The position numbers and the translations under genes are program-made. Source: a bacterium (lineage in GTDB: Bacteria > UBA8248). Taken from it: 64,000 bases of DNA. Each line of letters starts with the position of its first letter. Position 1 is the first letter of the stretch. The notes below the pieces were generated by a model, which did not search any database, had not been told where the DNA came from, and worked only from the letters and a program-made list of their open reading frames with translations. Shown here one piece after another: positions 488-15,862 of the stretch. The stretch covers positions 320,001 through 384,000 of the forward strand of contig CBDATS010000008.1 of the NCBI GenBank assembly GCA_965200245.1. Reading direction: 5' to 3'.

Positions 488-1189
488 TCAAACGGCCAGA
501 TAGCGCGATTTCAATTCCTCATCTTCCTCTAGTCCAGCCACCGTACCGTCGAAACGAACCCTTCCATTATCGATGATGTAAACCCTGTCGGATAACCGGC
601 ATGCGAAGCGGGCGTTTTGTTCCACCAGCAGAACGGCGATTCCCTCATCCTGGAGAGTACCGATCATCTCACCCAGGTCCCTCACGATGGCGGGTGCGAG
701 GCCTTCGGAGGGTTCGTCGAGCAATACGAGTTTCGGCGCCCCCATCAAGGCGCGTCCGATGGCCAGCATCTGCTGCTCTCCACCGCTCAGTTGGTTTCCC
801 TTGTGTGTCCTCAATTGCCTGAGTTTCGGAAAAAGACCATATATGCGCTCCAAAGTCCAATCGCTCGCCCGCTCAAGCTTGAAAGCGCCGATTTCGAGAT
901 TCTCCTCCACGCTCAGGCGAGAGAAAATTCTCCTGTCTTCGGGAACGAAACCCACGCCCTTTCTGGCCATCTCATGGGGTATTGGGCGCTGCATCTCCTC
1001 GCCCAGCCAGCGCACGCTGCCCTCTCGCGGGGGCGTCAGCCCCATGATGGAGCGTAGCGTGGTTGTCTTTCCCGCGCCATTTCTGCCGAGCAGACTCACC
1101 ACCTCGCCTTCGGCGATGGCTAAATCCACGTCGAACAAGATGTGGCTGTCCCCGTAAAACGTATTGATTTTCTCAACGGAGAGAATCAA
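488..1189 (-). CDS. livF: Branched-chain amino acid-type ABC ATPase (LivF-like)
   Basis: Walker A GRNGAGKTT, signature LSGGEQQM, LLDEPSEGLAP. Confidence 0.92.
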   Translation of the reverse strand: MILSVEKINTFYGDSHILFDVDLAIAEGEVVSLLGRNGAGKTTTLRSIMGLTPPREGSVRWLGEEMQRPIPHEMARKGVGFVPEDRRIFSRLSVEENLEIGAFKLERASDWTLERIYGLFPKLRQLRTHKGNQLSGGEQQMLAIGRALMGAPKLVLLDEPSEGLAPAIVRDLGEMIGTLQDEGIAVLLVEQNARFACRLSDRVYIIDNGRVRFDGTVAGLEEDEELKSRYLAV

Positions 1190-1938
1190 AATTCTTCCCC
1201 CAGGTAGGCGAGGCGTACCAGGTCGTTCCTGCGAATTTCATCGGGCGTTCCCTCGGCGATAATGCTCCCCTGATGCAGAACGGATATGCGATCAGCGATC
1301 GAGAAAACCACGCTCATGTCGTGCTCGGTGAAGACGACCGTCTTGTCGTGGGATATCTTCTTGATGAGAGCGATCGTACTCGATGTCTCCTCGATCGACA
1401 TGCCGGCCGTCGGTTCATCGAGCAGGATCAGCCGTGGCTCAAGCGCGAGCGTAATCCCGAGTTCGAGGTTTCTCCGCTCCCCGTGGCCGAGTTCCGTGGT
1501 CGGGTGATGCGCCTTGTGTGCGAGTTCTACCTCGCCCAGTATCCCGAGCGCTTCATCTTGTTCCTGGATGTGTTTCCCGATGGGGGAGAACAGGTCCAGC
1601 GTCTTGCCCCGTCTCGCCAAAACAGCGATGCGGACATTGTCCAGAACCGAAAGTCTGGGAAATATGTTGGTTATCTGAAAGGAACGGCCCACGCCTTTCT
1701 TCACCACCGCGTGTGGAGGATAGCCGGTAATGTCTTCTCCCTCGAAGAAAACGCCGCCCGAAGTCGGTTCGAGTTTTCCCGAAATCAGGTTGAAAAAGGT
1801 GGTTTTGCCCGCACCGTTGGGTCCGATGACGGCGCACAACAATCCTTGCGGAACCTGAAAGTCCACCTCGTTAACCGCCAGAAGCGAACCGAACTGTTTG
1901 CTGAGACTTCGCGTCTCAAGAACGGGTGCTGTCGCCAT
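1186..1938 (-). CDS. livG: Branched-chain amino acid-type ABC ATPase (LivG-like)
   Basis: GPNGAGKTT, RSFQITNIF, LLDEPTAGM, EHDM; start moved to ATG 1938 (MATAPV). Confidence 0.92.
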   Translation of the reverse strand: MATAPVLETRSLSKQFGSLLAVNEVDFQVPQGLLCAVIGPNGAGKTTFFNLISGKLEPTSGGVFFEGEDITGYPPHAVVKKGVGRSFQITNIFPRLSVLDNVRIAVLARRGKTLDLFSPIGKHIQEQDEALGILGEVELAHKAHHPTTELGHGERRNLELGITLALEPRLILLDEPTAGMSIEETSSTIALIKKISHDKTVVFTEHDMSVVFSIADRISVLHQGSIIAEGTPDEIRRNDLVRLAYLGEEF

Positions 1939-2944
1939 GGTCTTCACCTGTCGATAATCTGGAGGTCCATCCCTCGAAGAACCCCAGGATACCACCGGGA
2001 AGGAACAGGACAAGGAGCACCAGAATGCTGCCGACGACGATTCGCCAGTACTCCATAAAATTCAAGACCGTGTCCCGGATGAAAAGGAGGAGTCCTGCAC
2101 CAAAGGCCGGCCCCAGAAAGGAATACATGCCGCCCAGGATCGTCATCAGAACGATCTCGCCCGACTGGGTCCAGTAGAGCAAATCGGGCGAAATATACCC
2201 CTGAAAAGTCGAGTAGAGGCCGCCCGCGAACCCGCCGAAGGTTCCTGCGATGATGAAGGCGTACAGCTTGTACCTGTGCACGGGCAGACCGATGAACTCC
2301 ACGCGTTCGGGATTTTCTCGAATGGCCTGCAACACCCTGCCGAAAGGGGAATTCACGAATTTCCACGCGAGGAAGATCAGAGTCAACACGATAATCAGCA
2401 CAAAGTAATAAAAATTCGTGAACGATTCCAGGGAGATGGTAAAGACGCCCGGAATCCCGATATCGGGTTTCGGGATGCCGAGCATCCCGTCGTCCCCGCC
2501 GGTGACGTCACGCCAGTAGTAGGCGACGGTGTAGATCACCTGTGAGAACGCGAGCGTCAACATGGCAAAATAAAGACCGGCCAAGCGCACACAGAATACG
2601 CCCATGAACCAGGCGAGAAGCGCGCACGATGCGCCCGCCACTATCAATCCGGCCCACATGGAGGGATAGACGTTCTTCGTCAGCAGGGCGAAGGCGTAGG
2701 CACCCACGCCCAAATACACTGCATGACCCAGGGAGACTAGGCCGGTGAAGCCGATCAGAAAATTCAGGCTGATGGCGAGCAGGCTCGCTATGAGGATTTC
2801 CGTGCAAAGCTGGATGTAATAATCACCCTGCGCCAGAAAAGGCACGAGTACAGCCAGGGCGAAAAGGGTCATGACGCCGGATCTCTTGGGAATGCGCCTG
2901 ATGAGGTGTCTTGAGAAAGAATTTCCGCTTGCTGAACTTCTCAT
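1916..2944 (-). CDS. livM: Branched-chain amino acid-type ABC permease (LivM-like)
   Basis: GLVSLGHA, GLYFAMLTLAF, TGGDDG, SPFGRVLQAIRENP; multi-TM. Confidence 0.9.
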   Translation of the reverse strand: MRSSASGNSFSRHLIRRIPKRSGVMTLFALAVLVPFLAQGDYYIQLCTEILIASLLAISLNFLIGFTGLVSLGHAVYLGVGAYAFALLTKNVYPSMWAGLIVAGASCALLAWFMGVFCVRLAGLYFAMLTLAFSQVIYTVAYYWRDVTGGDDGMLGIPKPDIGIPGVFTISLESFTNFYYFVLIIVLTLIFLAWKFVNSPFGRVLQAIRENPERVEFIGLPVHRYKLYAFIIAGTFGGFAGGLYSTFQGYISPDLLYWTQSGEIVLMTILGGMYSFLGPAFGAGLLLFIRDTVLNFMEYWRIVVGSILVLLVLFLPGGILGFFEGWTSRLSTGEDHGDSTRS

Positions 2945-2959
2945 GAATCTTCAACGTCC

Positions 2960-3841
2960 TTATATTGTTGTCTCGCCGAACAGGCCGCGTGGTCTCAGAA
3001 TCAAAATAGGCAGCACGAGGGCGTAGATGAAGATCATCGCAAAATTCTCAAGTATCTCGATACCGAACGCCTTGAGCATTCCGATGAGCACCGCGCCCAC
3101 GAACGCGCCCAGATAGCTCCCCATACCGCCCACGATTACGACGATGAACGACTCGATGATGATTTCCACCCCCATGCCGGGCTCCACGCTTCTCATGGGC
3201 GCGGCCAGAATGCCGCCGAGACTCGCGAGCCATGCCCCCAGGGCGAATACACCCGTGAACACCCGGTTCACGTTCACCCCCAAGGCATCGAGCATCTCGC
3301 TGTCCGTAGCGGCGGCGCGGACGAGTTTCCCAAAATTTGTCCGGTGGAGAACGAACCAAAGGAAAACGCCCAGCAAAGGCCCCACCGCGATGATAAAGAG
3401 AAAATATACGGGATAACTGAAATCCCCGATTGAGATTCGCCCCTCGAAAAGCGCGGGGATGGGAACGGACTTGTAATCCCGACCCCAAATCAGCAGAACC
3501 AGATCGTCGAGAATGAGCGTGAAACCATAGGTCAAGAGCAGGGTGTAGAGTCTTTCCCGGCCATAGAGAGGACGCAGGCAAAACGCTTCGATGATGGTCC
3601 CGAACCCCGCCACCACGAGAGGTGCCAGAAGCAGACCCACCCAGAACCAGCTTGGATTTTGGATGATGGAACTTGAGAAAATGAGAAAAGCGCCCAGCAT
3701 GTAGAACGAGCCATGGGCCAGGTTCAACACGCCCAACACGCCCAGGAGAATCGTCAGGCCCGATGCGATCAGGAAAAGAACCATCGCATTGGCCAACCCG
3801 TTCAGAAACTGGGTAAACCAAAAACTGATGTCCAATTCCAT
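2960..3841 (-). CDS. livH: Branched-chain amino acid-type ABC permease (LivH-like)
   Basis: GLTILLGVLGVLNLAHGSFYMLGA, VIVGGMGS, RPRGLFG. Confidence 0.9.
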   Translation of the reverse strand: MELDISFWFTQFLNGLANAMVLFLIASGLTILLGVLGVLNLAHGSFYMLGAFLIFSSSIIQNPSWFWVGLLLAPLVVAGFGTIIEAFCLRPLYGRERLYTLLLTYGFTLILDDLVLLIWGRDYKSVPIPALFEGRISIGDFSYPVYFLFIIAVGPLLGVFLWFVLHRTNFGKLVRAAATDSEMLDALGVNVNRVFTGVFALGAWLASLGGILAAPMRSVEPGMGVEIIIESFIVVIVGGMGSYLGAFVGAVLIGMLKAFGIEILENFAMIFIYALVLPILILRPRGLFGETTI

Positions 3842-3868
3842 GCGAGGGGGCCCCCTGAGAGGTGAAGC

Positions 3869-3894
3869 GACGCCCCGTGGTTTCTCGGGGCGTC
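3869..3894 (-). terminator. Stem-loop between binding-protein and permease genes (mRNA stabiliser or partial terminator)
   Basis: GACGCCCCG (3869-3877) pairs with CGGGGCGTC (3886-3894). Confidence 0.55.
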
Positions 3895-3914
3895 AACGGC
3901 TCCACGCTTGATGA

Positions 3915-5135
3915 CTATTTCCGGCAGCCTTGGCCCGTGTTCTCGTCGGGATGAGAACCCTCGACAGGAGATATTACCTGGATGTTCGAGAGAACCGGGA
4001 AAGGATATTCCTTGTTTTTCGAGATGACGCCCCAGAAGCTCGACTGCCAGCCCTGGTGGTCGGAGGGACGCATGATGATCCAACCCTCGGGAGCGTTGAA
4101 GGCGACACCGCCCATCGCGTCTATCGCCTTCTCCTTGTTCACGGTGCCCGCGCGGCGGATGGATTCCGCAATCACATGGACAGTCGAATATGCTTCACCG
4201 GCCGTCATGTCAGGATATACGTTGTACGCCTTGCGGAAGCTGTCCACGAAACGCTTGTTGTTCGCGGAAACCGGATAGTTGTGCAGATAGCGCGAACTTG
4301 CCCAGTGACCGTATGGTGCCTGATCGCCCAGCGCCTTGAGAACTACGTGGTTGCCGCCGAAATCGGTGAAAATCTTCACCTTCTCGTACATCCCGAATGA
4401 GCGGGCCTGCTTCATGAACTTGATGAGGTCCGCGCCGAACAGGCCTACGTAGATGGCGTCGGGCTCCGCTTTGAGCATCTTGTTAATGTAGGCGGAATAA
4501 TCATTCTCGCCCAGTTTTGGCCAGGCCGCGTAGGGGCGCTGCGCCTTGGGGTCGCGTTCTTTCAGATAGTTCCAGAACTGCCGGATGACGGAGCGGCCGT
4601 ATGAGAAATCAGACGAAATAGTCGCCCATTTCTTATAACCCAGACGATGGGCGATGACGGCACCCGCTCGCGAGGTCTGCTGCGCGCTGCTTCCTACGCG
4701 CCAGGTGTAACGGCTACAGAATTTCGTGTTGATCTCCTCGGTCGCCGCCCAGGGGAAATTCATTGTCTTGAGTTTCTTCGATTCCTGCAAGACGGCAATG
4801 GCCGCTCCCCCGTGCAAAGGCCCCAAGAGGGCGAAAACCTTGTCACGCAGAATCAGGCGCCGCGCCGTTCGCACCGAACTCGCTGGGTTGGTCTCCGAAT
4901 CCCGGATCAGTGCCTCGAACTTGTGGCCCAAAACACCGCCTGAGTCGTTGATTTCCTTGACGGCGAGGTTGATGCCCTGACTCGTTCTTTTCCCGACGAT
5001 GGAATACAGGCCCGTCAACGGAGAGAGAACGCCTATCTTGATCGTTTTCGCCGCAAACGAGGTGTTAGGACCCGATGCAGCAAGCGCCAGTGCCATCACT
5101 GTGGTGATGAGCGCCTTTTTCCGGAAACTGGACAT
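3915..5135 (-). CDS. ABC substrate-binding protein, LivK/type I PBP family
   Basis: Signal peptide MSSFRKKALITTVMALALAA, IKIGVLSPLTG, AVKEINDSGGVLG; start set at ATG 5135. Confidence 0.88.
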   Translation of the reverse strand: MSSFRKKALITTVMALALAASGPNTSFAAKTIKIGVLSPLTGLYSIVGKRTSQGINLAVKEINDSGGVLGHKFEALIRDSETNPASSVRTARRLILRDKVFALLGPLHGGAAIAVLQESKKLKTMNFPWAATEEINTKFCSRYTWRVGSSAQQTSRAGAVIAHRLGYKKWATISSDFSYGRSVIRQFWNYLKERDPKAQRPYAAWPKLGENDYSAYINKMLKAEPDAIYVGLFGADLIKFMKQARSFGMYEKVKIFTDFGGNHVVLKALGDQAPYGHWASSRYLHNYPVSANNKRFVDSFRKAYNVYPDMTAGEAYSTVHVIAESIRRAGTVNKEKAIDAMGGVAFNAPEGWIIMRPSDHQGWQSSFWGVISKNKEYPFPVLSNIQVISPVEGSHPDENTGQGCRK

Positions 5136-5394
5136 GAGAAATCCCCCTGGAAGATGGAAAGATGCAGATCCGCACTGCCGGAATCGAATCCATTGCGGAT
5201 CCGACACCTGGAGCAAGTGTATATTCGAGTTCAGCATAGGAAGCAGGTTAGATAAGCCTCGATTCGGAGTCAAGGCCGCCTTTTTCGCGCCAAAAGTCCG
5301 CATTGTACTCATGGCGGGGGAATCGGCACGGCTTGATTTTCCGTATCCCGTGAACAGGCGACAACGCTCGGTTCCTTCTGGAGGACGCTCCGGC

Positions 5395-6492
5395 TCAGGA
5401 ATATCCCGGCTCATCCTCAGAAGTCGCGTAGAAGCGGAAGTAGGCGAGGGCAGCATATGCTTTCGCCTCGATGTGGTCGTCTTGAATCGTCAGCTTGACG
5501 TGGTTGATTCCCTTGTAGAGGATGGACATGCCTTTTTCCTCGAAAATCCTCTCGACCGCCGGGAAGTCGCGCAGACCTTCGCCCTTCTCAGGCAAACACC
5601 ATCGCATCTGTTCTAGGTAGTCCAACACGGAACTCCAGGCGTTGCGCCCCGACGTCAACCAGTAATTGAGGTTCGAGGGTTGTCTCGGCCTGTACATATC
5701 GAGTCCCAGGCGCGGCCCTACGCCGTCTGCACCGACATCGGACGACAGGCGGAAGATCGGTGTCAGATGGTGCATCTCTTCTATGATGTCCATCACCTTC
5801 TGGGTGGGGCCGTCCCATTTCAGGCGCTTCAGGAAAGCGGGTACGTTGCGCTGCTTCAGGTCATCGATGACGAGTCGAATATAGCGCGGTTCGCGCTCGG
5901 CCACGGCACCTATCTGGTCCACCACGCCGCTACGGGGCAGGGCGGCGAAGACGCGCTCCACGGCGATTCGCTCCTTCTCGTTCTCGTTCCAGCCGACGGC
6001 GCTCGCGACGGCGGCGGCCAGATTGTCGGGGGTTCGCTCGCGTGCAGTTTGTTCGTCGAGTTCAGTTTGCGGCTTGAGTGCCAGAAACACACCAGGGGCC
6101 AGGTGCCGTCCCGGAGGGACTTTCACGATGTCATATCCGAGCATCGACGCACGAAACCAGCCTGCCAGAGAGGGTTCAGAAGGGGGTCCCATCCCTTTTA
6201 TTCGGGAATAGGCCCGGCTCAGGGCCACCTCGGAAGCGTTGGCTCCCGTTTCCTCGCCACGGCGGATGAAATACTCCATGGAGGAACGCCCTGGCTCAAG
6301 CGAGACGAAATAATCGGCCGCAGGTTCAGGTTCGTTCAGCCGGAACTCGAATGCCGCGTAGTTCAAAGTCAGCCAACTGGGCAGGTCGCCGACGCGCTCC
6401 AGCAGGCACCCCCACCACGGGTCGTCCAGCAAGGTGGGGGGAATGAAGCGACGCAGCCTTGGGAAAGCATCTCCGAAACTCTCAGACATCAT
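5395..6492 (-). CDS. Uncharacterised NHLP-associated enzyme, putative ABBA-like peptide/aromatic prenyltransferase
   Basis: About 365 aa, soluble, directly downstream of NHLP precursors; motifs FEFRL..PEPAADY, QIGAVAER..IRL, DVGADGVGPRLGL, WCLPEK, INHVKL...EAKAY recall bacterial prenyltransferase-like proteins; function inferred. Confidence 0.55.
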   Translation of the reverse strand: MMSESFGDAFPRLRRFIPPTLLDDPWWGCLLERVGDLPSWLTLNYAAFEFRLNEPEPAADYFVSLEPGRSSMEYFIRRGEETGANASEVALSRAYSRIKGMGPPSEPSLAGWFRASMLGYDIVKVPPGRHLAPGVFLALKPQTELDEQTARERTPDNLAAAVASAVGWNENEKERIAVERVFAALPRSGVVDQIGAVAEREPRYIRLVIDDLKQRNVPAFLKRLKWDGPTQKVMDIIEEMHHLTPIFRLSSDVGADGVGPRLGLDMYRPRQPSNLNYWLTSGRNAWSSVLDYLEQMRWCLPEKGEGLRDFPAVERIFEEKGMSILYKGINHVKLTIQDDHIEAKAYAALAYFRFYATSEDEPGYS

Positions 6493-6697
6493 CGAACCCT
6501 GTTTCTTTGTCGGTAGGATACACGGTATTCGAGGCGGTGATGAGCGAACATTGCTATCGGATCTCCCTTCCACGAAGGACCGAAAATACGCTCAAACCCG
6601 CATGCCAAGAGTCCGAACAAAGTCCCTTTCGTGGATTTTGGCAGACCGAACGGGCAGACAGTTAAACTGTTTTGTTTGATATAGCCTATCGAGAGTT

Positions 6698-6976
6698 TTA
6701 GCTCAAGCTGTTCCATGCGTTGATGAAATTCGCATATGCCTGTGTGCCAGCCGCGACGGCGCTCAACTCCGCCTCGCTCAACTCGGAAGGTGGCAAGACG
6801 AGGTTGAAACTCATGATGCCGTCTTGATGCACACTGATTTGGAACTCCTCGGGAATGGCAACTCCCAACTCCCGCTCCATAGCGGCCTTTGGGTCAGCTA
6901 TTAGCTCGGTGCGGAACGCTTCGTTCTCACTGGCTTTTTTTGCGATTATCTCGCGAACTTCGTCTCCGGTTTTCAT
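6698..6976 (-). CDS. NHLP (nitrile hydratase-like leader peptide) RiPP precursor
   Basis: 92 aa; leader KASENEAFRTELIADPKAAMERELG...LVLPPSELSEAELSAVAAG, then 15-aa core TQAYANFINAWNSLS; GGAGA RBS upstream. Confidence 0.9.
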   Translation of the reverse strand: MKTGDEVREIIAKKASENEAFRTELIADPKAAMERELGVAIPEEFQISVHQDGIMSFNLVLPPSELSEAELSAVAAGTQAYANFINAWNSLS

Positions 6977-7347
6977 TGTCTTGAAATCTCCAGATAGCAT
7001 TCGACCGGAAAGGATACTTGAGTCTTCCTTCCTGATTCAGGCAAAGTATAAAATATTGGCGGTTCGGGTTCAACCATATTCCATGCGTTAACGGAATTCG
7101 CAAATGCCTGCGTGCCAGCCAAGTTGGTCCTCAACTTCGCCTCGCTCAACTCGGCCCGCGTCAATACGAAATTGATGATCAAGGTACCGTCTTGATGCAC
7201 GCTGAACTGGAGCACCTCGGGAATGGCAATTCCCAACTCGCGCTGCATGGCGACCTTGGGGTACACCTGCAATGCGGCGCGGAACGTCTCATTTGAGACG
7301 ACCTTGCGAACGATTTCTTCCCACACTCCTTCCAAAGTTTTCACCAC
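6973..7347 (-). CDS. Second, diverged NHLP precursor (possibly decaying)
   Basis: Paralog of 6698-6976 (AMQRELGIAIPE, SVHQDG, ELSEA..AG|TQAFANSVNAWN) with substitutions at conserved leader positions and a long C-terminal tail. Confidence 0.7.
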   Translation of the reverse strand: MVKTLEGVWEEIVRKVVSNETFRAALQVYPKVAMQRELGIAIPEVLQFSVHQDGTLIINFVLTRAELSEAKLRTNLAGTQAFANSVNAWNMVEPEPPIFYTLPESGRKTQVSFPVECYLEISRQ

Positions 7348-7754
7348 CTCGGGTCCTCATCGTGTGAGCGCCCCAGGGCACCGCCGGGTACTTCGACCTG
7401 CTATGCCAGGTTCCCCTCGCGCGGAGACCTGTGACATAAAACCTTTTCTGCCCTGTACGAGCAAAAATAAGAACAACTCAGTAAAGTATATGCGTAGCGT
7501 TCGCTTCGTCAACAAAAATACGACATTCAGCGGTTACAAAATAAAACGAAATAGTAAAACACTTGTCCTGAAGCACCATGGGTTAGCTTGGAAAAACCGT
7601 GCAGGATACGTGATTTCGGCCCTGGGATGGCTGTCAAGGGCTTTTTTCTTGAGCAGGCCCGATAGCCTGTGAGAAACTTGCGCTCTGATTCAGGGTTATC
7701 AAACGTGAGTTCCACGCCAGCGAAGACCCGTTATCCGACAGGAAAGGAAGCGCG

Positions 7755-9479
7755 ATGAACAACGAGGACTCAGACCAGCACGTAAACACCGATGTGCGTT
7801 ACGAGGCTGATGAGAAGCCGCCGCCCCTGCTCGCGTTTGGCCTTGGGTTGCAACTCGCTGTACTCTGCGTGGGCGGCGTTGTGTTCACGCCCGCTATCGT
7901 GGTATAGGCAGCGGGCGGAACCGAGGACTATCTATCCTGGGCCGTCTTCGCCGCGGGTTACGTGCTCATCATGGGTACATCGGGCGCTTTCATCGCAGTC
8001 TGCATTGCAGCGCTCGCCCAAGGAGGGCCGGGGACGCTCGCCACGCTGGTCCTTGTTTCTTCATTGTTTCAGTTTTTGTTCTCGGAACGTCTCTCGCTGT
8101 TTCGTCGGGTGCTGACGCCCACGGTCGCGGGAACCGTCATCATGCTCATCGCCGTGACGGTGATGCCGATCGTCTTCGGCATGCTGGATGATGTGCAGAA
8201 GGACGCCTCGCCGCTCGCTGCTCCGCTGAGCGCCCTGACGAGTGTGGTTGTCATCGTCGGCATCGCACTCAAAGCAACGGGGACGCTGCGCCTCTGGGCG
8301 CCCGTCCTCGGCGTGATAGCGGGTTCGCTTGTAGGCCTCTATTTTGGCATTTATGATACGGTCCGCGTTGCAGAAGCCGCTTGGATCGGTCTTCCCAAGG
8401 GTGCCTGGCCGGGCTTGGATTTGAGTTTCGGGCCGGTTTTCTGGGCACTTCTTCCCGGGTTTGTGTTCGTCACCTTGATCGGCGCCATCGAGACCATAGG
8501 CGACGGTGCAGCCATCCAGCGTGTGTCCTGGCGGCATCCCCGGGCGGTGGATTTCCGGGCGGTGCAGGGCGCGGTGGCCGCCGACGGATTGGGCAACCTG
8601 CTCTCGGGCCTTATGGCGACGGTGCAGAACACGACTTATTCGACGAGCGTGTCCGTCACCGAACTCACTGGCGTCGGAGCGCGCAGTGTCGGTATCTTCG
8701 CAGGTTTCGTGTTCCTTGTCCTGGCGTTTTTGCCGAAGCTGGTTGCCGTGATCCTGGCGATACCCGCTCCCGTCGCCGCGGCCTACATCACCGTTTTGCT
8801 GGCGATGCTCTTTGTGGTCGGCATGCGCATGGTCATTCAGGACGGTATCGACTACCGCAAGGGCTTGGTGGCGGGCGTGGGCTTCTGGGCGGGCGTGGGT
8901 TTTCAGAATGGTGTCATATATCCCGAGTATTTCTCCACCTTCGCAGGCGGCCTGTTGAACAACGGAATGACCGCAGGCGGCCTCGTCGCCATAATACTGA
9001 CGCTGTTCGTTGAACTCACCCAACCTCGGCGCAGACGCCTGGAGGTAGAGTTCGAACTGTCGGCCTTGCCCAGGATCAGGGAATTTATCGGCGAGTTCGT
9101 CTCTTCAGGCAGCTGGGACGCCGCGATGGCACACCGCCTGGATGCAGCGGGTGAGGAGACGCTGCTGACGCTTCTACGCCAGAAGGAAGCCAGCGGAAGC
9201 AGTGAACGGCGGCGTCTGCTCCTGGTGGCGCACAAACAAGACAGCGGCGCGGTACTGGAGTTCGTCGCCGCAGGTGGGGAGGAGAATCTTCAGGACAAAA
9301 TCGCTCTGCTAAGTGAACAGACTGCTGGCGTGCCGCTAGAGCGGGAAGTCTCGCTCAGGCTGCTTCGCCATATCGCCTCCTCTATTCACCATAAGCAATA
9401 CCACGACACGGACATCGTGACCGTTCGCGTGGAACCCCAGGCGCGGGGTGCTTCAAGGGGAGTTGAGAAGCACGGTTGA
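7755..9479 (+). pseudogene. NCS2/NAT family (xanthine/uracil-type) permease fused to a C-terminal degenerate HATPase/RsbW-like domain; in-frame TAG at 7905-7907
   Basis: ATG 7755 (RBS GGAAAGGAAG) gives MNNEDSDQHVNTDVRYEADEKPPPLLAFGLGLQLA, in frame with ORF 7962-9479 (MGTSGAF, TPTVAGTVIMLI, ETIGD, ADGLGNLLSG); TAG at codon 51; soluble tail about 9027-9434. Confidence 0.8.
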
Positions 9480-10394: not shown

Positions 10395-10856
10395 ATGAGG
10401 AGATATTCACGTAATTTGGCTACTTACAAGATACTCATGGTGGACGACGAACCCGATCTCGAAGGTCTCGTGAGTCAGCGCATGCGGCGTGAGATACGAC
10501 GGGGCCTCTATTCGTTCGTATTCGCGCGCAACGGGGCCGAGGCACTCGAGCTGCTGAACGGGGACGATGAAATCGACATCGTCATCACCGACATCAACAT
10601 GCCGGAGATGGATGGCCTCACGCTGCTTGAGCAAATTCCCGCATACGACCCCAAGGTCCGCTGCGTAATCGTTTCCGCCTACGGGGACATGAAGAACATC
10701 CGCACGGCGATGAACCGGGGTGCGTTCGATTTTCTCAACAAACCGATTGATTTCGAGGACCTGCGTCAAACCATCGGCAAGACCGTCGAGCACATCATAA
10801 AAGTCCGGGAGATGTTTGAGGTACGTGGCAGGATGCTGACGGAGGGCGGATCATAG
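10395..10856 (+). CDS. Single-domain response regulator (REC)
   Basis: ILMVDDE, ITDINMPEMDG, VSAYG, FDFLNKP. Confidence 0.9.
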   Translation: MRRYSRNLATYKILMVDDEPDLEGLVSQRMRREIRRGLYSFVFARNGAEALELLNGDDEIDIVITDINMPEMDGLTLLEQIPAYDPKVRCVIVSAYGDMKNIRTAMNRGAFDFLNKPIDFEDLRQTIGKTVEHIIKVREMFEVRGRMLTEGGS

Positions 10857-12070
10857 TGGAAGAGTCGCACAAGATACTAGTTGTGGATGACGAACCCGAT
10901 CTCGAAGACCTCGTGAAACAGCGCATGCGACGCGAGATACGGCGGGGCCGCTATTCGTTCATATTCGCGCGCAACGGGGCCGAGGCACTTGAGTGCTTGA
11001 GCGATGACAAAGACGGCCATTCCATCGACATGGTGCTCACCGATATCAATATGCCGGTAATGGACGGTCTCACGCTGCTCAAGCAAATTCCATTGGTCGA
11101 CCCCAACATACGTTCGGTGGTCGTCTCCGCCTACGGAGATATGGAAAATATCCGCACAGCGATGAACCGGGGTGCGTTCGACTTCGTCACCAAGCCGATC
11201 GATTTCGAGGATTTGCGGATCACCATCGAGCGGACCCTAGAACATCTCGCCATGCTTCGCGAAGCCCTTGAGGCGCGCGACAAGCTGGTCGCGATCAAGA
11301 GTGACCTTGCTCTGGCCAACAAGATGCAGCAGTCGATTCTAACGACCAAATTTCCAGAGGACTCCAACTTCGAAATATTCGCAGGTATGGTGCCGGCCAG
11401 AGACGTGGGGGGCGATTTCTACGACATAATCGATCTTGGCGATGGCCGCATCAGCGTCACTGTCGCTGACGTTTCGGGCAAGGGAGTGCCCGCCGCGCTT
11501 TTCATGATGTCGAGCTACATGCTGCTCAACAGCGTCACCGTTACGCGCGTGGATTCGGGCAAGGAACTCGGCGAGGTGAATCGTTTTTTACAACCCGGCG
11601 ACGTGCTCCGTGAGGTGAACCGGCGGCTTGAGGAAAACAACGACGCCGGGATGTTTGTCACGGTTTTCCTCTTGTTTTTTGATTCCGCGACAGGAGAAAT
11701 AGTATATGCCAATGGTGGCCACAACCCCCCGGTCATTATTCACGCCGATGGTTCCTCAAGCCTTCTTGCCGAGCAGCCGGGAGTGGCCTTGGGGATTGTG
11801 GCCGAGTTCAACTACGACATGTACAACGCAACTCTCGCGCCCGGCGAGGCTCTCATTCTCTATACCGACGGAGTAACGGAGGCGGAGAACGAGAAGACCG
11901 AGCAGTTTGGCCTTGATCGCCTTCAAGGGATTCTCGGAGGCGCATCACCGATCTCCGCCAGAGAGATCAACACCAAGGTTTTCGAGGCGGTCAACGAATT
12001 TGCTGGCAGTGCGCCCCAATTCGATGATGTCACCTGTCTGACCATTTTCCGCCGTGGTGAGAGCGAATGA
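10856..12070 (+). CDS. REC-PP2C (SpoIIE/RsbU-like) phosphatase
   Basis: N-terminal REC; PARDVGGDFYD, ADVSGKGVPAALFM, YANGGHNPP, YTDGVTEA, QFDDVT. Confidence 0.93.
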   Translation: MEESHKILVVDDEPDLEDLVKQRMRREIRRGRYSFIFARNGAEALECLSDDKDGHSIDMVLTDINMPVMDGLTLLKQIPLVDPNIRSVVVSAYGDMENIRTAMNRGAFDFVTKPIDFEDLRITIERTLEHLAMLREALEARDKLVAIKSDLALANKMQQSILTTKFPEDSNFEIFAGMVPARDVGGDFYDIIDLGDGRISVTVADVSGKGVPAALFMMSSYMLLNSVTVTRVDSGKELGEVNRFLQPGDVLREVNRRLEENNDAGMFVTVFLLFFDSATGEIVYANGGHNPPVIIHADGSSSLLAEQPGVALGIVAEFNYDMYNATLAPGEALILYTDGVTEAENEKTEQFGLDRLQGILGGASPISAREINTKVFEAVNEFAGSAPQFDDVTCLTIFRRGESE

Positions 12071-12486
12071 GCGCGAAACTTTCATTGACCATGGGGTTCG
12101 AACCCTCGGAACTCCCACAAGTTCAGTCCGCCATCAGTGAGTTCAGCCGAGAGCAGGAGTGGACGTCCGACATCGAATTCCAGGTTGACCTCGTGATCGA
12201 AGAATTGCTCCTGAACGTCGTGAACCACGGCAGCGACGGGGGAGACAATGAGATCAGCCTCGAACTCATCTCGGATGACGATGTGGTGATCATAGAGATC
12301 ATCGACGACGGCAAACCCTTCAACCCACTGACCGACGCGCCCGAACCGGACACAGAATCGGACATCGAAGATCGCGCCGTGGGTGGGCTTGGCATCCATC
12401 TGGTGCTGACGATGATGGACGAGGTGACCTGTCGGCGGGAGAAGGACAGGAACCATATGCGCCTCGTCAAGTTGAGGAACAAATGA
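12067..12486 (+). CDS. Anti-sigma factor / Ser kinase (RsbW-like, HATPase_c_2)
   Basis: EELLLNVVNHG, DDGKPFNP, GGLGIHLV motifs. Confidence 0.9.
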   Translation: MSAKLSLTMGFEPSELPQVQSAISEFSREQEWTSDIEFQVDLVIEELLLNVVNHGSDGGDNEISLELISDDDVVIIEIIDDGKPFNPLTDAPEPDTESDIEDRAVGGLGIHLVLTMMDEVTCRREKDRNHMRLVKLRNK

Positions 12487-13661
12487 AGAAGCTGCTCCGC
12501 ACTCGCCGGGCAGTTTTCCTCCTCGCCGCGGCACTTATTTGCTCGGCGTCCGGGGCAGTGGCGGCAGTACCCGGCGTATCCCCCGAGAAAGTTCTGTTCG
12601 GCCAGTCAGCCGCCTTGTCCGGGCCTGCGAAGGCTCTGGGCGAGGACATGAGGCGCGGAATCGAAACCGCCTTCCGCGTTGCGAACTTGCGCGGCGGCGT
12701 TCACGGGCGCCGGCTCGAACTCATTTCCCTCGACGATGCGTATGAACCCGAAGCCGCCGTCCTGAACACCCGGCGACTGATTGAGCAGAGCAAGGTATTC
12801 GCCCTTATCGGGGCGGTCGGCACGCCCACCTCTCGCTCGGCCACCCCGGTCGCCGCAAAGGCGGGCGTTCCCTGCATCGCTCCCCTCACAGGCGCCGCTT
12901 TCCTGCGTGACCCGAAATGGAAGAACATCATCAACCTGCGTGCCTCCTACTTCCAGGAGACCGAGGAGATAGTGAGCCGGCTGATCGGGGATTTGGGCTT
13001 CAAGAAGGTCGCCGTGTTTTATCAGGACGACTCTTTCGGGCTGGCAGGCTACGAAGGCGTACGCTTGGCTCTTGAGCGGCGCAAACTGAAGCCTGTGGTC
13101 ACTGGCGTGTATCCAAGAAATACGACAGCGGTCAAAACGGCCTTGCTCGATATTCGGCGCGCGAACCCCGACGCAGTAATTCTTGTGGGAGCATACAAGC
13201 CGGTCGCTACTTTCATTGCCTGGGCGCGGCGTACAGGTTTCACCCCGATTTTCGCGACGATCTCTTTCGTGGGCGGCAACGCGCTCGTGCGTGAACTTGG
13301 TCCCGCCGGCGTCGGCATCTATGTCACCCAGGTGGTTCCGCCCCCTTCATCGAAAGATATCCAGATAGCGTCGAACTATCGGCGGGATCTGGAGGCCCAC
13401 TCACCCGGCGCTGTTCCGAGTTTCGTGTCCTTCGAGGGCTATATGGCCGGTAGACTCGCCATCCGCGCCCTGGAATTGTGCGGGCGCAACCCCGACCGCC
13501 CCTGCCTGCTCGATGGGTTGCGCCGCGCGGCCACCATCGATCTCGGCGGATTCAAGTTGCGTTACGGCAAGGACGACAACCAGGGTTCGGACGCCGTTTT
13601 CCTCACCATCGTAGGGGAGAGCGGCCGCTACGTTCCGACCGATAAAATGTGGCGGCCCTAA
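12483..13661 (+). CDS. Orphan periplasmic ligand-binding protein (LivK/type I PBP fold)
   Basis: Signal peptide, GQSAALSGP, LDDAYEP, VGTPTS, NLRASY; no adjacent permease or ATPase. Confidence 0.88.
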   Translation: MKKLLRTRRAVFLLAAALICSASGAVAAVPGVSPEKVLFGQSAALSGPAKALGEDMRRGIETAFRVANLRGGVHGRRLELISLDDAYEPEAAVLNTRRLIEQSKVFALIGAVGTPTSRSATPVAAKAGVPCIAPLTGAAFLRDPKWKNIINLRASYFQETEEIVSRLIGDLGFKKVAVFYQDDSFGLAGYEGVRLALERRKLKPVVTGVYPRNTTAVKTALLDIRRANPDAVILVGAYKPVATFIAWARRTGFTPIFATISFVGGNALVRELGPAGVGIYVTQVVPPPSSKDIQIASNYRRDLEAHSPGAVPSFVSFEGYMAGRLAIRALELCGRNPDRPCLLDGLRRAATIDLGGFKLRYGKDDNQGSDAVFLTIVGESGRYVPTDKMWRP

Positions 13662-13672
13662 AGATAAAGACA

Positions 13673-15862
13673 ATGAAGAGCGTACTCAGGAATATTCTGG
13701 ACAAGTGCTACAAGATATCGACGCAGCTCTACCTCAGCATCGGCATTGCTGCCTCCCTTACCGTCGTCGCGAGCGTGGTCGCGTGGATTTCGTTCGCTTA
13801 CGTGGGCAAGGTGCAAAATCGTGTGAATAAGGGCACCGTTCCTTTCCTGGCGAGCGCATTTGAAACGGCCCAGGCAAGCATCGCCCTGGTGGCCGCAGCT
13901 CCTCGTTTGGCCTCGGTCGTGAACCCGGATAATCTAGAGCAAGTCGCCACCGAGGTCGCCAAGGATCAGGAAGCCTTCGAGACGGTGCTGGTGTCACTCA
14001 TACGTCATGGAGATAACGAGGGTATCTCCATGGAAATCAAGAAACTGGGCGACACGCTGACCCAGAACCTCGGAGCTATCAAGCAATTGGTGCTGGAGCG
14101 CTTCAATTTGACCGACCTGCGCGATACGCTCCAACTCCAACTCGCATGGGTGCGCAAGGAACTGACCAATGTCCTCATTCCCGCTATCGACGATCAACTT
14201 TTCTACGTGATGTCGGGCTACCATACAATCAGTGAAGCACCAGACCCCCATGAAAAGCATTTCGCCGAAGAGGGAATCAACCTCTACCGCTACATCGCTG
14301 GTCTGCGCTCGGACGCCACCGTTGCAGCGCAGCTTCTCTCCACTGTTTTCAGCGTGTCGGACGTCGCCCTGATCGAACCGCTGAGCGAGCGCTTCGAAGC
14401 TACTGCGCGCAGCATCAGGCGGCAACTGGACGCTCTCGGGGCGATGCCGGTGCGTGCCACTCTCAAACCTCTTTTCGAGCAGATGATCGAGTTAAGCATC
14501 GGGGAGGAGGGGGGGATCAGCCTGCGCGCGCGCGAGTTGGCACTCGAGAGCAAACAAAAAGAGTTGCTTGCGTTCCACGAATCTTTGGAGTTACAAATCC
14601 TGGCCACCACGAAAAAGCTGGTGAACACGGCCCGCAATAGCGCGCGGCAAGTCACCCAAGATTCCGCTCAGGCGATCAGCATGGGCACCAATATCCTGTT
14701 CGCGCTGGGTGCCATCAGTTTTATCGGCGCCGTGCTGATAGGCTGGCTGTTCATCGGCCGTGTACTCTCGCGTCGGCTCGGGCAACTCTCGGACCGCATG
14801 CGTCGCATGGCCGACGGCGACCTGGAGGAGACGGTCGACATTGGCGGAAAGGACGAAGTGGCGGAGATGTCCGCGGCACTTGAGATCTTCCGTCGCCACG
14901 CCCTGGAGGTGCAGCGCCTGAACTTGGTGGAGAGACTTGCCGAGGAGATCAGGGCCAAGAACGAAGAACTCGAAGGCGCGCTCGGAGATCTGGAGAAAGC
15001 GCAGGATCAGATTGTCATGCGTGAGAAGCTTGCAGCGCTCGGTGAGTTGACGGCGGGCGTTGCCCACGAGATCAGGAATCCGCTGAACTTCATCAAGAAT
15101 TTTTCGGAAGTTTCCGAGGAACTGATGGAGGAATTGTTGGAAGAACTGGATAAGGTGGCACATCACGAGGGCAACGGGCAGGAGAACGGACAAAAAGCGG
15201 ACGAGGGGGAGAAAAAACAGGAGGAGGAAGACCCCTACGAGCTTATCACCGAAATCGGAGAGGACCTCACTGGCAACCTCAAGCGCATCCGCGAGCACGG
15301 AGAGCGGGCCAACAACATCGTGGAGAGCATGCTCCAGATGGGTAGGGGTTCGGGCGAAACGCAACCGGCCAACGTGAACAAACTGATCGACGAGCATACG
15401 CGTCTTGCCTATCACAGTGCCAAGGCGGCGGACCCGAATTTCAACCTCACGATCGACTGGGACCTCGACCCCGACATGGTGGAATTCGACGTTATTCCGC
15501 AGGATCTGGGCCGCGTCTTCCTCAATATGGTGAGCAATGCTTGCTATGCCACCGACGAGAAGCGTCGGGAGCTCGCCGCCTCGCCGGACGGGAACAAGCC
15601 TCCCTACGATCCTATTCTCATGATTGTCACCAAGTGCAGGCCGAACGACGTTGAGGTTCGCATTCGTGACAACGGAAGCGGAATGCCGCCCGAGGTCATC
15701 GAGAAGATTTTCACCCCCTTCTTCACGACCAAGCCGACGGACAAGGGCACCGGGCTCGGTCTATCGCTCTCCCACGACATCATTCGCCAGCACGGGGGTA
15801 GCGTACGGGTCGAAACCGAGCCCAACGAATTCACGGAGATGATAATCGAACTGCCCCGTTGA
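13673..15862 (+). CDS. Membrane sensor histidine kinase (long helical TorS-like periplasmic domain, HAMP, HisKA, HATPase)
   Basis: Two TM segments flanking a helical region of about 300 aa; HAMP (RMADGDL...DEVAEM), AHEIRNPLN, NMVSNA, DNGSG, FTTKP, GTGLGL. Confidence 0.9.
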   Translation: MKSVLRNILDKCYKISTQLYLSIGIAASLTVVASVVAWISFAYVGKVQNRVNKGTVPFLASAFETAQASIALVAAAPRLASVVNPDNLEQVATEVAKDQEAFETVLVSLIRHGDNEGISMEIKKLGDTLTQNLGAIKQLVLERFNLTDLRDTLQLQLAWVRKELTNVLIPAIDDQLFYVMSGYHTISEAPDPHEKHFAEEGINLYRYIAGLRSDATVAAQLLSTVFSVSDVALIEPLSERFEATARSIRRQLDALGAMPVRATLKPLFEQMIELSIGEEGGISLRARELALESKQKELLAFHESLELQILATTKKLVNTARNSARQVTQDSAQAISMGTNILFALGAISFIGAVLIGWLFIGRVLSRRLGQLSDRMRRMADGDLEETVDIGGKDEVAEMSAALEIFRRHALEVQRLNLVERLAEEIRAKNEELEGALGDLEKAQDQIVMREKLAALGELTAGVAHEIRNPLNFIKNFSEVSEELMEELLEELDKVAHHEGNGQENGQKADEGEKKQEEEDPYELITEIGEDLTGNLKRIREHGERANNIVESMLQMGRGSGETQPANVNKLIDEHTRLAYHSAKAADPNFNLTIDWDLDPDMVEFDVIPQDLGRVFLNMVSNACYATDEKRRELAASPDGNKPPYDPILMIVTKCRPNDVEVRIRDNGSGMPPEVIEKIFTPFFTTKPTDKGTGLGLSLSHDIIRQHGGSVRVETEPNEFTEMIIELPR

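Follow-up and report, generated by a model that had tools for sequence, protein, structure and literature searches.

Few leader-guided prenyltransferases acting on ribosomally synthesized peptides that are modified after translation (RiPPs) have been characterized (MppC, NctPC, ChrPC and PalQ). MppC, NctPC and PalQ are among the closest comparisons for the locus described here, in which a gene for an enzyme of 365 amino acids (aa) lies beside genes for precursors with leaders of the NHLP type, at positions 5395–7347 of a 64,000-nucleotide (nt) stretch of DNA (hereafter the window; positions 320,001–384,000 of contig CBDATS010000008.1, assembly GCA_965200245.1) from a bacterium of the GTDB lineage UBA8248. 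MppC of Moorena producens is a soluble ABBA-type prenyltransferase that geranylates the indole of a Trp in its precursor, MppE, and needs a long, structured leader (PMC12715784). The MppE leader is Nif11-like, whereas that of the window precursor is of the NHLP type, and MppC prefers a core cyclized by LanM through lanthionines, whereas the window has no LanM and a core without Cys (PMC12715784). NctPC is reported to geranylgeranylate a Trp and then cyclize the chain (PMC13290415). The same logic, a prenyltransferase combined with an MstE-like cyclase, is found in relatives of the window enzyme, in which the two are fused (protein P0182) or adjoining, but NctPC is a bifunctional maturase, whereas the window enzyme is a stand-alone protein of 365 aa with no cyclase, the two being compared by description only (PMC13290415).

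Other systems are close in one respect and distant in another. The PalQ/PalX pair of Paenibacillus alvei is a minimal system consisting of an NHLP-type precursor and one prenyltransferase, with Trp as the target and a leader that enhances the reaction (PMC10853753). The PalX core ends in Trp, as do the cores of many relatives, whereas the conserved Trp of the window is internal (NAWNSLS), and PalQ has the all-helical fold of the isoprene-synthase superfamily, whereas the window enzyme is predicted to have an ABBA fold (PMC10853753). The cyanobactin prenyltransferases of the F family act independently of a leader, on macrocyclized cores (PMC12715784). The srp proteusins of sponge microbiomes, as described in a preprint, have LCCCW cores, with azolines made by YcaO enzymes and brominated Trp (bioRxiv 10.1101/2023.06.09.544420). 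Like the window family, they are NHLP precursors distributed across phyla in sponge microbiomes, with Trp as the modified residue (in the window family, the candidate one), but the window family has Cys-poor cores and an ABBA partner (bioRxiv 10.1101/2023.06.09.544420).

The window enzyme is a stand-alone variant of the known leader-dependent RiPP prenyltransferases (NctPC, MppC). What sets this variant apart is that its ABBA enzyme stands alone, that a linear, Cys-free core follows an NHLP leader, that the locus has no other maturase, and that the family is large, with arrays of variable Trp-containing cores. The reading that we favour, with a probability of about 0.62, is that of a two-component RiPP module in which Trp88 of precursor A is prenylated by the stand-alone ABBA enzyme under the guidance of the leader, with cleavage and export then occurring in trans; the enzyme and precursor probably make a lipid-tagged peptide of a little-studied kind. 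The enzyme would dock on the folded NHLP leader of precursor A and, with a prenyl diphosphate as donor, attach an isoprenyl group to the indole of Trp88, which is invariant and lies in NAWN, the core being linear and Cys-free. The leader would then be cut after VAAG, and the lipidated 15-mer exported by a C39-peptidase ATP-binding cassette (ABC) transporter and HlyD protein encoded about 100 kb away. A donor chain of C15–C20 is plausible, because relatives of the enzyme are paired with cyclases, and since the window has no cyclase, a linear rather than a cyclized prenyl group would be expected. The free core has a calculated monoisotopic mass of 1698.80 Da, and its prenylated forms would have masses of 1766.86 (C5), 1834.93 (C10), 1902.99 (C15) and 1971.05 Da (C20). 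The analysis shows the layout of the genes, that precursor A is an NHLP member, the ABBA fold of the modelled enzyme, the close association of the enzyme family with NHLP precursors, the abundance of Trp in the cores, and the fusion or proximity of relatives to class II terpene cyclases. We infer that the enzyme is active, that Trp88 is the acceptor and that the leader is required, and likewise the length of the donor and the processing in trans. The features of the locus are:

6492..5395, minus strand: enzyme gene (from the open reading frame list), encoding a 365-aa ABBA-fold, prenyltransferase-like maturase of a family without a name
6976..6698, minus strand: precursor A, a 92-aa NHLP-leader RiPP precursor (leader residues 1–77, core residues 78–92)
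6745..6701, minus strand: core peptide of precursor A, TQAYANFINAWNSLS, with the Trp88 codon at 6715..6713
7347..6973, minus strand: precursor B, a decayed tandem duplicate, 124-aa frame with a GTG start
7512..7485, minus strand: promoter-like site TTGACG-16-TATACT (10/12 to consensus), upstream of precursor B
6493..6697, minus strand: spacer of 205 nt between precursor A and the enzyme gene

The original prediction, made from the letters of the sequence, had placed three co-oriented open reading frames (ORFs) here, with a soluble protein of about 365 aa next to the precursors and no radical S-adenosylmethionine (SAM) enzyme, YcaO, LanM, peptidase or exporter adjacent. The layout was confirmed on the minus strand, and annotation of the flanks bore out the rest: no radical SAM enzyme, YcaO, LanM, protease, RiPP exporter or any other maturase is encoded within about 9 kb of the locus. 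The ATG of precursor A overlaps the TGA stop of precursor B. The 365-aa form of the enzyme begins MMSESFG; an alternative GTG start further upstream would lengthen it to 392 aa, and the enzyme is present in the protein collection as a 364-aa form starting at the second Met.

Fold of the enzyme

An AlphaFold2 model of the enzyme, built on a 27-row alignment, has a predicted local distance difference test (pLDDT) score of 89.0 and a predicted template modelling (pTM) score of 0.88, and consists of repeated helix-helix-strand-strand units forming a beta-barrel with flanking helices. The best 50 matches listed by Foldseek against the PDB are exclusively aromatic prenyltransferases, among them IptA (E 3e-6), PriB, AmbP1, NphB/Orf2, TleC, CymD, CloQ and EpzP, with query-normalized template modelling (TM) scores of 0.41–0.50. 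A second look with VIA-align gave a Z score of 15.7 for MpnD (root-mean-square deviation, rmsd, 4.8; 300 residues) and Z ≥ 8 for 132 of 999 chains. All 48,161 representative PDB chains were also aligned in an exhaustive VIA-align search, independent of Foldseek: 19 chains had Z ≥ 8 (16.0–11.3), every one of them an ABBA prenyltransferase, and the next chain scored 5.6. The best match in this search was again MpnD (Z 16.0, rmsd 4.6, 298 residues aligned). Enzymes of the indole or dimethylallyltryptophan synthase (DMATS) types, including DMATS1, CymD and FgaPT2, had Z scores of 16.0–13.6, and NphB, AmbP1, EpzP and CloQ scores of 13.1–12.2. No isoprenoid-synthase chain is found among the fold matches listed by Foldseek or VIA-align, and the model is a beta-barrel rather than the all-helical isoprenoid-synthase fold of the ComQ and PalQ type. 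On this model, the enzyme is an ABBA barrel, closest to the indole prenyltransferases; the original prediction had staked itself on a barrel of the ABBA type.

The best structural neighbours, the DMATS-type enzymes MpnD, CymD, FgaPT2 and DMATS1 (Z 15.1–16.0 over about 300 residues), act on free Trp or small indoles, however, and have only 6–10% identity to the window enzyme, which has no PF11991 match. The cyanobactin enzymes PatF (Z 12.2), PagF (11.5) and DciF (11.3) use an ABBA barrel on ribosomal peptides, as the window enzyme would, but differ from it in that no PatA/PatG-type proteases are adjacent in the window, no Pfam or NCBIfam family is shared, and the fold match lies below that of the indole types (Z 15–16).

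Enzyme family and its linkage to precursors

By sequence comparison, the enzyme belongs to a large family without a name, with at least 821 clusters at 50% identity. A word-indexed search returned 33 relatives, named solely ‘hypothetical protein’, and a HMMER search over 1.84 billion representatives gave 821 matches at E ≤ 1e-3, 262 at E ≤ 1e-10 and 82 at E ≤ 1e-30. In the family alignment (A1), 25 columns are invariant, and the window enzyme retains every one of them. The invariant or near-invariant residues of the family include E49, R51, D60, Y120, D121, R200, R206, D252, R261, K327, N330, H331, K333, K344 and Y346, the majority of which fall on predicted strands, and ten invariant or near-invariant basic and Tyr residues (R51, R200, R206, R261, K327, K333, K344, Y120, Y326 and Y346) lie on or beside predicted strands. 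Sets of basic and Tyr residues of this kind bind diphosphate in ABBA enzymes. The motifs from which the original prediction had recognized the enzyme (FEFRL..AD, QIG..R..IRL, DV..GPRLGL, CLPEK and NHVKL..AKAY) are all present, on conserved columns of the family. By sequence, the enzyme is not a member of PF11468 (PTase_Orf2), PF11991 (Trp_DMAT) or PF19156; its language-model feature similarity to PF19156, PF11991 and PF11468 (0.88–0.89) provides leads only.

A scan of one genome per species, with loci picked by enzyme similarity alone, provided 75 homologous loci. Their titles include Nitrospinota, Gamma- and Alphaproteobacteria, Binatia, Dehalococcoidia/SAR202, Spirochaetia, Vicinamibacterales and other Acidobacteria, Gemmatimonadota and Acidimicrobiia, the enzyme homologues thus spanning about nine phyla. 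An NHLP ORF lies within 6 kb of the enzyme gene in 72 of the 75 loci (all but L068, L091 and L095), often as part of an array of up to 12 precursors. In the window's own genome, each of the ten copies or pieces of the enzyme gene has an NHLP ORF no more than 2.4 kb away (25–2431 bp), the background being that 10.4% of this genome lies within 6 kb of an NHLP ORF. Strong linkage of homologues to precursor genes, the other point on which the original prediction had rested its case, is therefore seen in both sets. The link to cyanobacterial leader-peptide genes that it had suggested is not supported: among the titles of the 75 loci, none is cyanobacterial.

Within the phylum of the window, the family is present in 16 of 51 genomes, all from one genus (15 of 22 congeners and the window's own genome), and in none of the 28 genomes from 14 other genera. 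Orthologues were found in these 15 congeners at E values of about 1e-175. Congeners have 1–4 family matches per genome and the own genome eight, at the threshold of this survey. A quick tree of 92 rows (87 locus ORFs of 300–470 aa and five intact own copies, leaving out broken copies and duplicates) groups the window enzyme, on an end branch of 0.35, with the five rows labelled Nitrospinota in a clade of 14 rows (SH-aLRT 99), and the remaining own copies on branches of 0.8–2.5 changes per column. The phylum labels require 18 changes on this tree, the minimum being seven, which suggests a patchy spread across phyla by gene transfer, although the tree alone is no proof of it.

The neighbours recorded in the 75 loci include C39-peptidase ABC transporters (31 loci), HlyD (10), JmjC-like proteins (10), methyltransferases (7) and FAD_binding_4/cytokinin-dehydrogenase-like proteins (5). 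The JmjC_2/cupin, SAM methyltransferase and FAD_binding_4 plus cytokinin-dehydrogenase-like neighbours (examples are at L073:3764-5317, L086:7046-7765 and L084:7081-8550) are possible tailoring enzymes. The cytokinin-dehydrogenase-like family acts on an isoprenyl side chain. Four further neighbour clusters (4, 8, 13 and 17), which have no Pfam family, are unrelated to the enzyme family, and some may be antisense artefacts. Two loci encode unusually built NHLP precursors (L076:7112-7846 and L082:7181-7948; 244 and 255 aa) with a tail of about 150 aa after the Trp core; the tails start with Cys and give a Hint_2 match below the cut-off (E 0.006–0.009), and may be self-cleaving C-terminal domains on a RiPP precursor.

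Cores and the candidate acceptor

The core set consisted of 211 distinct precursors with a complete leader from the 75 loci, 209 of which have tails of at most 45 aa (median 14). Trp is present in 192 of these 209 short cores, is the last residue in 91 and lies within the last three residues in 112. It accounts for 9.1% of core residues but only 0.29% of the residues in the upstream leader part of the same ORFs. Cys is present in 14 of the 209 and makes up 0.7% of tail residues. An aromatic residue, usually Trp, is the common denominator of the cores; in the clade of the window, it is the Trp of NAWN. The original prediction had picked out NAWN as the segment shared by the two precursors of the window, and this choice held up, as A-W-N (A87-W88-N89 in precursor A) is invariant in all 12 aligned precursors (A, B and ten orthologues).

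Precursors A and B

With 62.4 bits against TIGR03793 (leader_NHLP; curated cut-off 50.9), precursor A is a member of this family. Its leader ends in VAAG, of the double-glycine type, and its core has no Cys and a single Trp. It is 63–74% identical to the lone precursor at each of ten orthologous loci, all of which have one precursor per locus, and core position 4 varies across the 12 aligned precursors (Y, F, W, M, P). The GGAGA ribosome-binding context upstream of precursor A is conserved among orthologues. The promoter-like stretch is retained upstream of the orthologous precursors in L021, L026 and L031, and would act as a promoter by position and consensus; the conserved promoter-like DNA sits upstream of precursor B and the conserved GGAGA context with precursor A.

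Two NHLP precursors with Cys-free, Trp-containing cores had been proposed for the window; precursor A fits this description and precursor B does not. Precursor B scores 31.1 bits against TIGR03793, below the cut-off, and is therefore not an NHLP member by score. Its leader ends in TNLAG, not in the VAG(G) that had been proposed, and its frame continues for 34 aa beyond NAWN, including one Cys, the ancestral stop having been lost. Precursor A and the ten orthologues have 45 invariant columns in the alignment, and precursor B departs from 15 of them. Because of the sub-cut-off score, altered leader end, read-through frame and 15 broken invariant columns, precursor B is a decayed duplicate rather than a second good precursor. 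HQDG and TQA[YF]AN..NAWN are common to precursors A and B and absent from the orthologues, and the duplication is therefore placed within the window's own lineage; our reading of these alignments is a tandem duplication followed by decay of the upstream copy.

Link to isoprenoid chemistry

The family is tied to isoprenoid chemistry by relatives that are fused to, or lie beside, class II terpene cyclases. Residues 20–374 of P0182 (730 aa) align to the enzyme family (hhalign probability 98.8%, E 1.2e-16), and residues 569–681 match SQHop_cyclase_C (30.2 bits against a cut-off of 26.1). A search with the N-terminal domain of P0182 returned 82 proteins (P0182–P0263), mostly of about 700–750 aa, many with PF13243 or a cyclase name; they come from Actinomycetota and Gemmatimonadota metagenome-assembled genomes and are named terpene cyclase/mutase or prenyltransferase/squalene oxidase repeat proteins. 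Judging from these domain matches, a subfamily fuses the ABBA domain to a C-terminal squalene-hopene-cyclase-like domain. The window enzyme (365 aa) has no fused extra domain in its model.

In the own genome, a 318-aa ORF (C8:217754-218710) adjoins a broken enzyme copy, on the opposite strand. Relatives of this ORF are found in 17 of the 75 loci, and all eight that were tested give sub-threshold SQHop_cyclase_C matches. Its model (pLDDT 89.0) matches drimenol synthase (E 2e-11, TM 0.77–0.79), small squalene-hopene-type cyclases and the type II cyclase MstE (TM 0.70). No cyclase-like ORF is encoded in the window, and the own genome has such ORFs only at C8:217754-218710 and C15:98634-99047. The region around the 318-aa ORF (L096; C8:212000-226000 of the own genome, G000) lies about 100 kb from the window and forms a second cluster, comprising an enzyme copy interrupted by an in-frame TAG, the 318-aa cyclase, a decayed NHLP ORF, a trio of ABC, C39-peptidase ABC and HlyD genes, and an AcrB-type pump. 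Two polyprenyl synthases are encoded in the own genome and may supply the donor.

Enzyme copies and precursors in the own genome

The own genome (3.68 Mb, 15 contigs) has 39 places that match TIGR03793, 34 of them above the cut-off, and a custom NHLP hidden Markov model found 38 ORFs, 32 of them distinct. The ten places found with the enzyme profile include three with in-frame stops and two short fragments. One contig end is represented twice (C2:1-5838 is the reverse complement of C15:1-5838, position x pairing with 5839-x). This assembly repeat, which inflates the copy counts, includes two NHLP genes and a portion of an enzyme copy.

Of 28 distinct precursors with a complete leader, eight lie within 6 kb of an enzyme copy and 20 are scattered orphans; Trp is present in 20 of the 28 core tails. 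The orphans are located far from maturase genes (for example C4:84702-85298, C5:32492-32761 and C15:340974-341537), with cores of 3–16 aa rich in Trp, Tyr, Asp and Gly. The genome looks like a one-enzyme, many-precursors arrangement. Ldh_2 genes near three of the NHLP genes were considered as RiPP partners and rejected, as they look like ordinary metabolism.

Processing, expression and predicted binding

The only NHLP-type export set of the own genome consists of a 980-aa ABC protein, a 729-aa C39-peptidase ABC protein and HlyD (C8:219599-225625), on the same contig as the window and about 100 kb away. No terminator or attenuator was found by a scan of the minus strand in the 205-nt spacer, the RNA fold of which is ordinary (z -0.98).

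The stretch is present in runs labelled sponge metagenome, two of them possibly its source, and in two metatranscriptomic runs, from one study. RNA-library contigs from these two runs cover positions 6095–7455, and one of them (X7, 1134 nt, 6322–7455) bridges precursor B, precursor A, the spacer and the 5' end of the enzyme gene. These contigs are compatible with one transcript and are no proof of transcription; their depths cannot rank genes. Upstream of the promoter-like site, positions 7475–7688 have no RNA-library contig and the DNA runs continue, a pattern that comes from a single study and is no evidence of a transcript start.

A predicted complex of the enzyme with precursor A has a median score of 0.52, the best of three controls scoring 0.02, with at least 75% contact agreement between runs and a partner pLDDT of at least 76; the verdict of the tool is weak support.

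Alternative readings

Several observations weigh against leader-guided prenylation of Trp88 by this enzyme. A shared fold by itself shows no function; catalysis is a further step, which we infer. Neither the enzyme nor any of ten distant relatives matches a Pfam or NCBIfam family at E ≤ 0.1 (the scans of all 11 gave sub-threshold noise only: DUF3088, wcaI, CMD, AAA_lid), and a profile of 27 family members had no match at E ≤ 10 among PDB chain sequences. The near-invariant basic and Tyr residues are located at the level of predicted strands. The predicted complex falls in a weak band: the pass mark was met by 58 of 80 solved complexes and two of 110 mismatched pairs, and among these passes, scores of 0.60 or less belong to just seven of the 80 solved complexes and to both mismatches. 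There is no protease or exporter in the locus, and the exporter that would act in trans adjoins a broken paralogue of the enzyme. One study produced both the RNA contigs and the possible source sample, and DNA carry-over is possible. The 75 loci are not independent, several coming from one record or from near-identical genomes. Precursor B is not a second good precursor, and 17 of the 209 cores have no Trp.

These last cores bear on the first alternative, which keeps the module and makes Tyr81 (by O- or C-prenylation, as in PagF) or another nucleophile of the core the acceptor. The core of precursor A holds Tyr and Phe beside Trp, Tyr, Phe or His is present in 16 of the 17 cores without Trp (some ending in ..YPV or ..GGYY), and the structural neighbours of the enzyme include the Tyr-accepting DMATS1 complex and the Tyr O-prenyltransferase PagF. 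However, core position 4, where Tyr81 lies, varies among orthologues whereas A-W-N does not, Trp is found in the great majority of cores (192 of 209), and the best structural neighbours are indole prenyltransferases. We therefore consider another acceptor unlikely.

The locus could also be a decaying remnant that yields no mature product in this strain. Precursor B is degenerate, the other enzyme copies of the own genome have long branches (0.8–2.5 changes per column) or in-frame stops (three copies), and the core of precursor A is 3 aa shorter than the ...NSLNQNS of its orthologues, which makes local decay possible. The window enzyme, on the other hand, is an intact ORF with all 25 invariant columns and a short end branch within a well-supported clade, precursor A scores above the NHLP cut-off, the promoter-like site and ribosome-binding context are conserved, and RNA-library contigs span the junction of the precursor and enzyme genes. 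Decay of the whole locus seems improbable in the light of these observations.

It is quite improbable that, in this clade, the ABBA-fold protein is no prenyltransferase and serves instead as a scaffold or chaperone that binds the leader, or performs another chemistry on the core. Such a role would fit the lack of sequence similarity to any characterized prenyltransferase, the absence of a cyclase or other isoprenoid gene from the window locus, and the fact that fold alone shows no function, but every solved chain with Z ≥ 8 in the exhaustive search is a prenyltransferase, acidic, basic and Tyr residues of the barrel strands (E49, R51, Y120, R200, R206, R261, K327, K333, K344 and Y346) are near-invariant across the family, and relatives of the enzyme are fused to or adjoin terpene cyclase domains. 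A small-molecule substrate, with the precursors adjacent by chance, is ruled out by the linkage in 72 of 75 loci and all ten own-genome copies.

Flanking genes

Downstream of the locus (488–5456), there is a Liv-type ABC importer, comprising a Peripla_BP_6 binding protein, two BPD_transp_2 permeases and two ATPases. Upstream, on the plus strand, a xanthine/uracil permease (7962–9479) is followed by a DUF3105 protein and, at 10395–15862, by a response regulator, a response regulator-SpoIIE phosphatase fusion, a second binding protein and a HAMP histidine kinase. On this side, the gene order (permease, DUF3105, response regulator) is retained in 10–11 of 13 orthologous loci. The flanking genes are unrelated to the RiPP pair. 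The response-regulator genes upstream of the precursors hold their position in 10 of the 13 loci; a tie between the flanking signalling genes and the peptide is speculation.

Significance

In the literature searched on NHLP precursors and proteusins, RiPP prenyltransferases and sponge symbionts, no paper describing the family was found, although a prior description is possible, and a 2025 review of sponge peptides contains no word beginning ‘prenylat’. A broader view of the family can be put forward tentatively, and is doubtful as a whole: the family may be a distinct RiPP class of short, linear, Cys-free, Trp-lipidated peptides, with hypervariable NHLP precursors in arrays or as orphans, one ABBA enzyme for all of them, and a spread by transfer across about nine phyla. 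Its products could be ComX-like prenyl-Trp signals or membrane-active compounds in sponge microbiomes, and the window, with one precursor, one enzyme and no cyclase, would be its simplest form. As in the prochlorosins, one enzyme would serve many precursors, with lipidation in place of a lanthionine synthetase.

Prenylation alters both the affinity of a peptide for membranes and its bioactivity, and there is demand for leader-guided prenyltransferases as peptide-lipidation tools. The rule of the family is simple, an NHLP leader and a short Trp core, and both cyclase-free and cyclase-bearing versions exist. The natural arrays, with up to 12 cores per enzyme, are a ready-made test of substrate tolerance, and the window pair, two genes in about 1.4 kb, is a minimal system. 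With this family, srp is joined by a second widespread NHLP system in the genomes recovered from sponge metagenomes.

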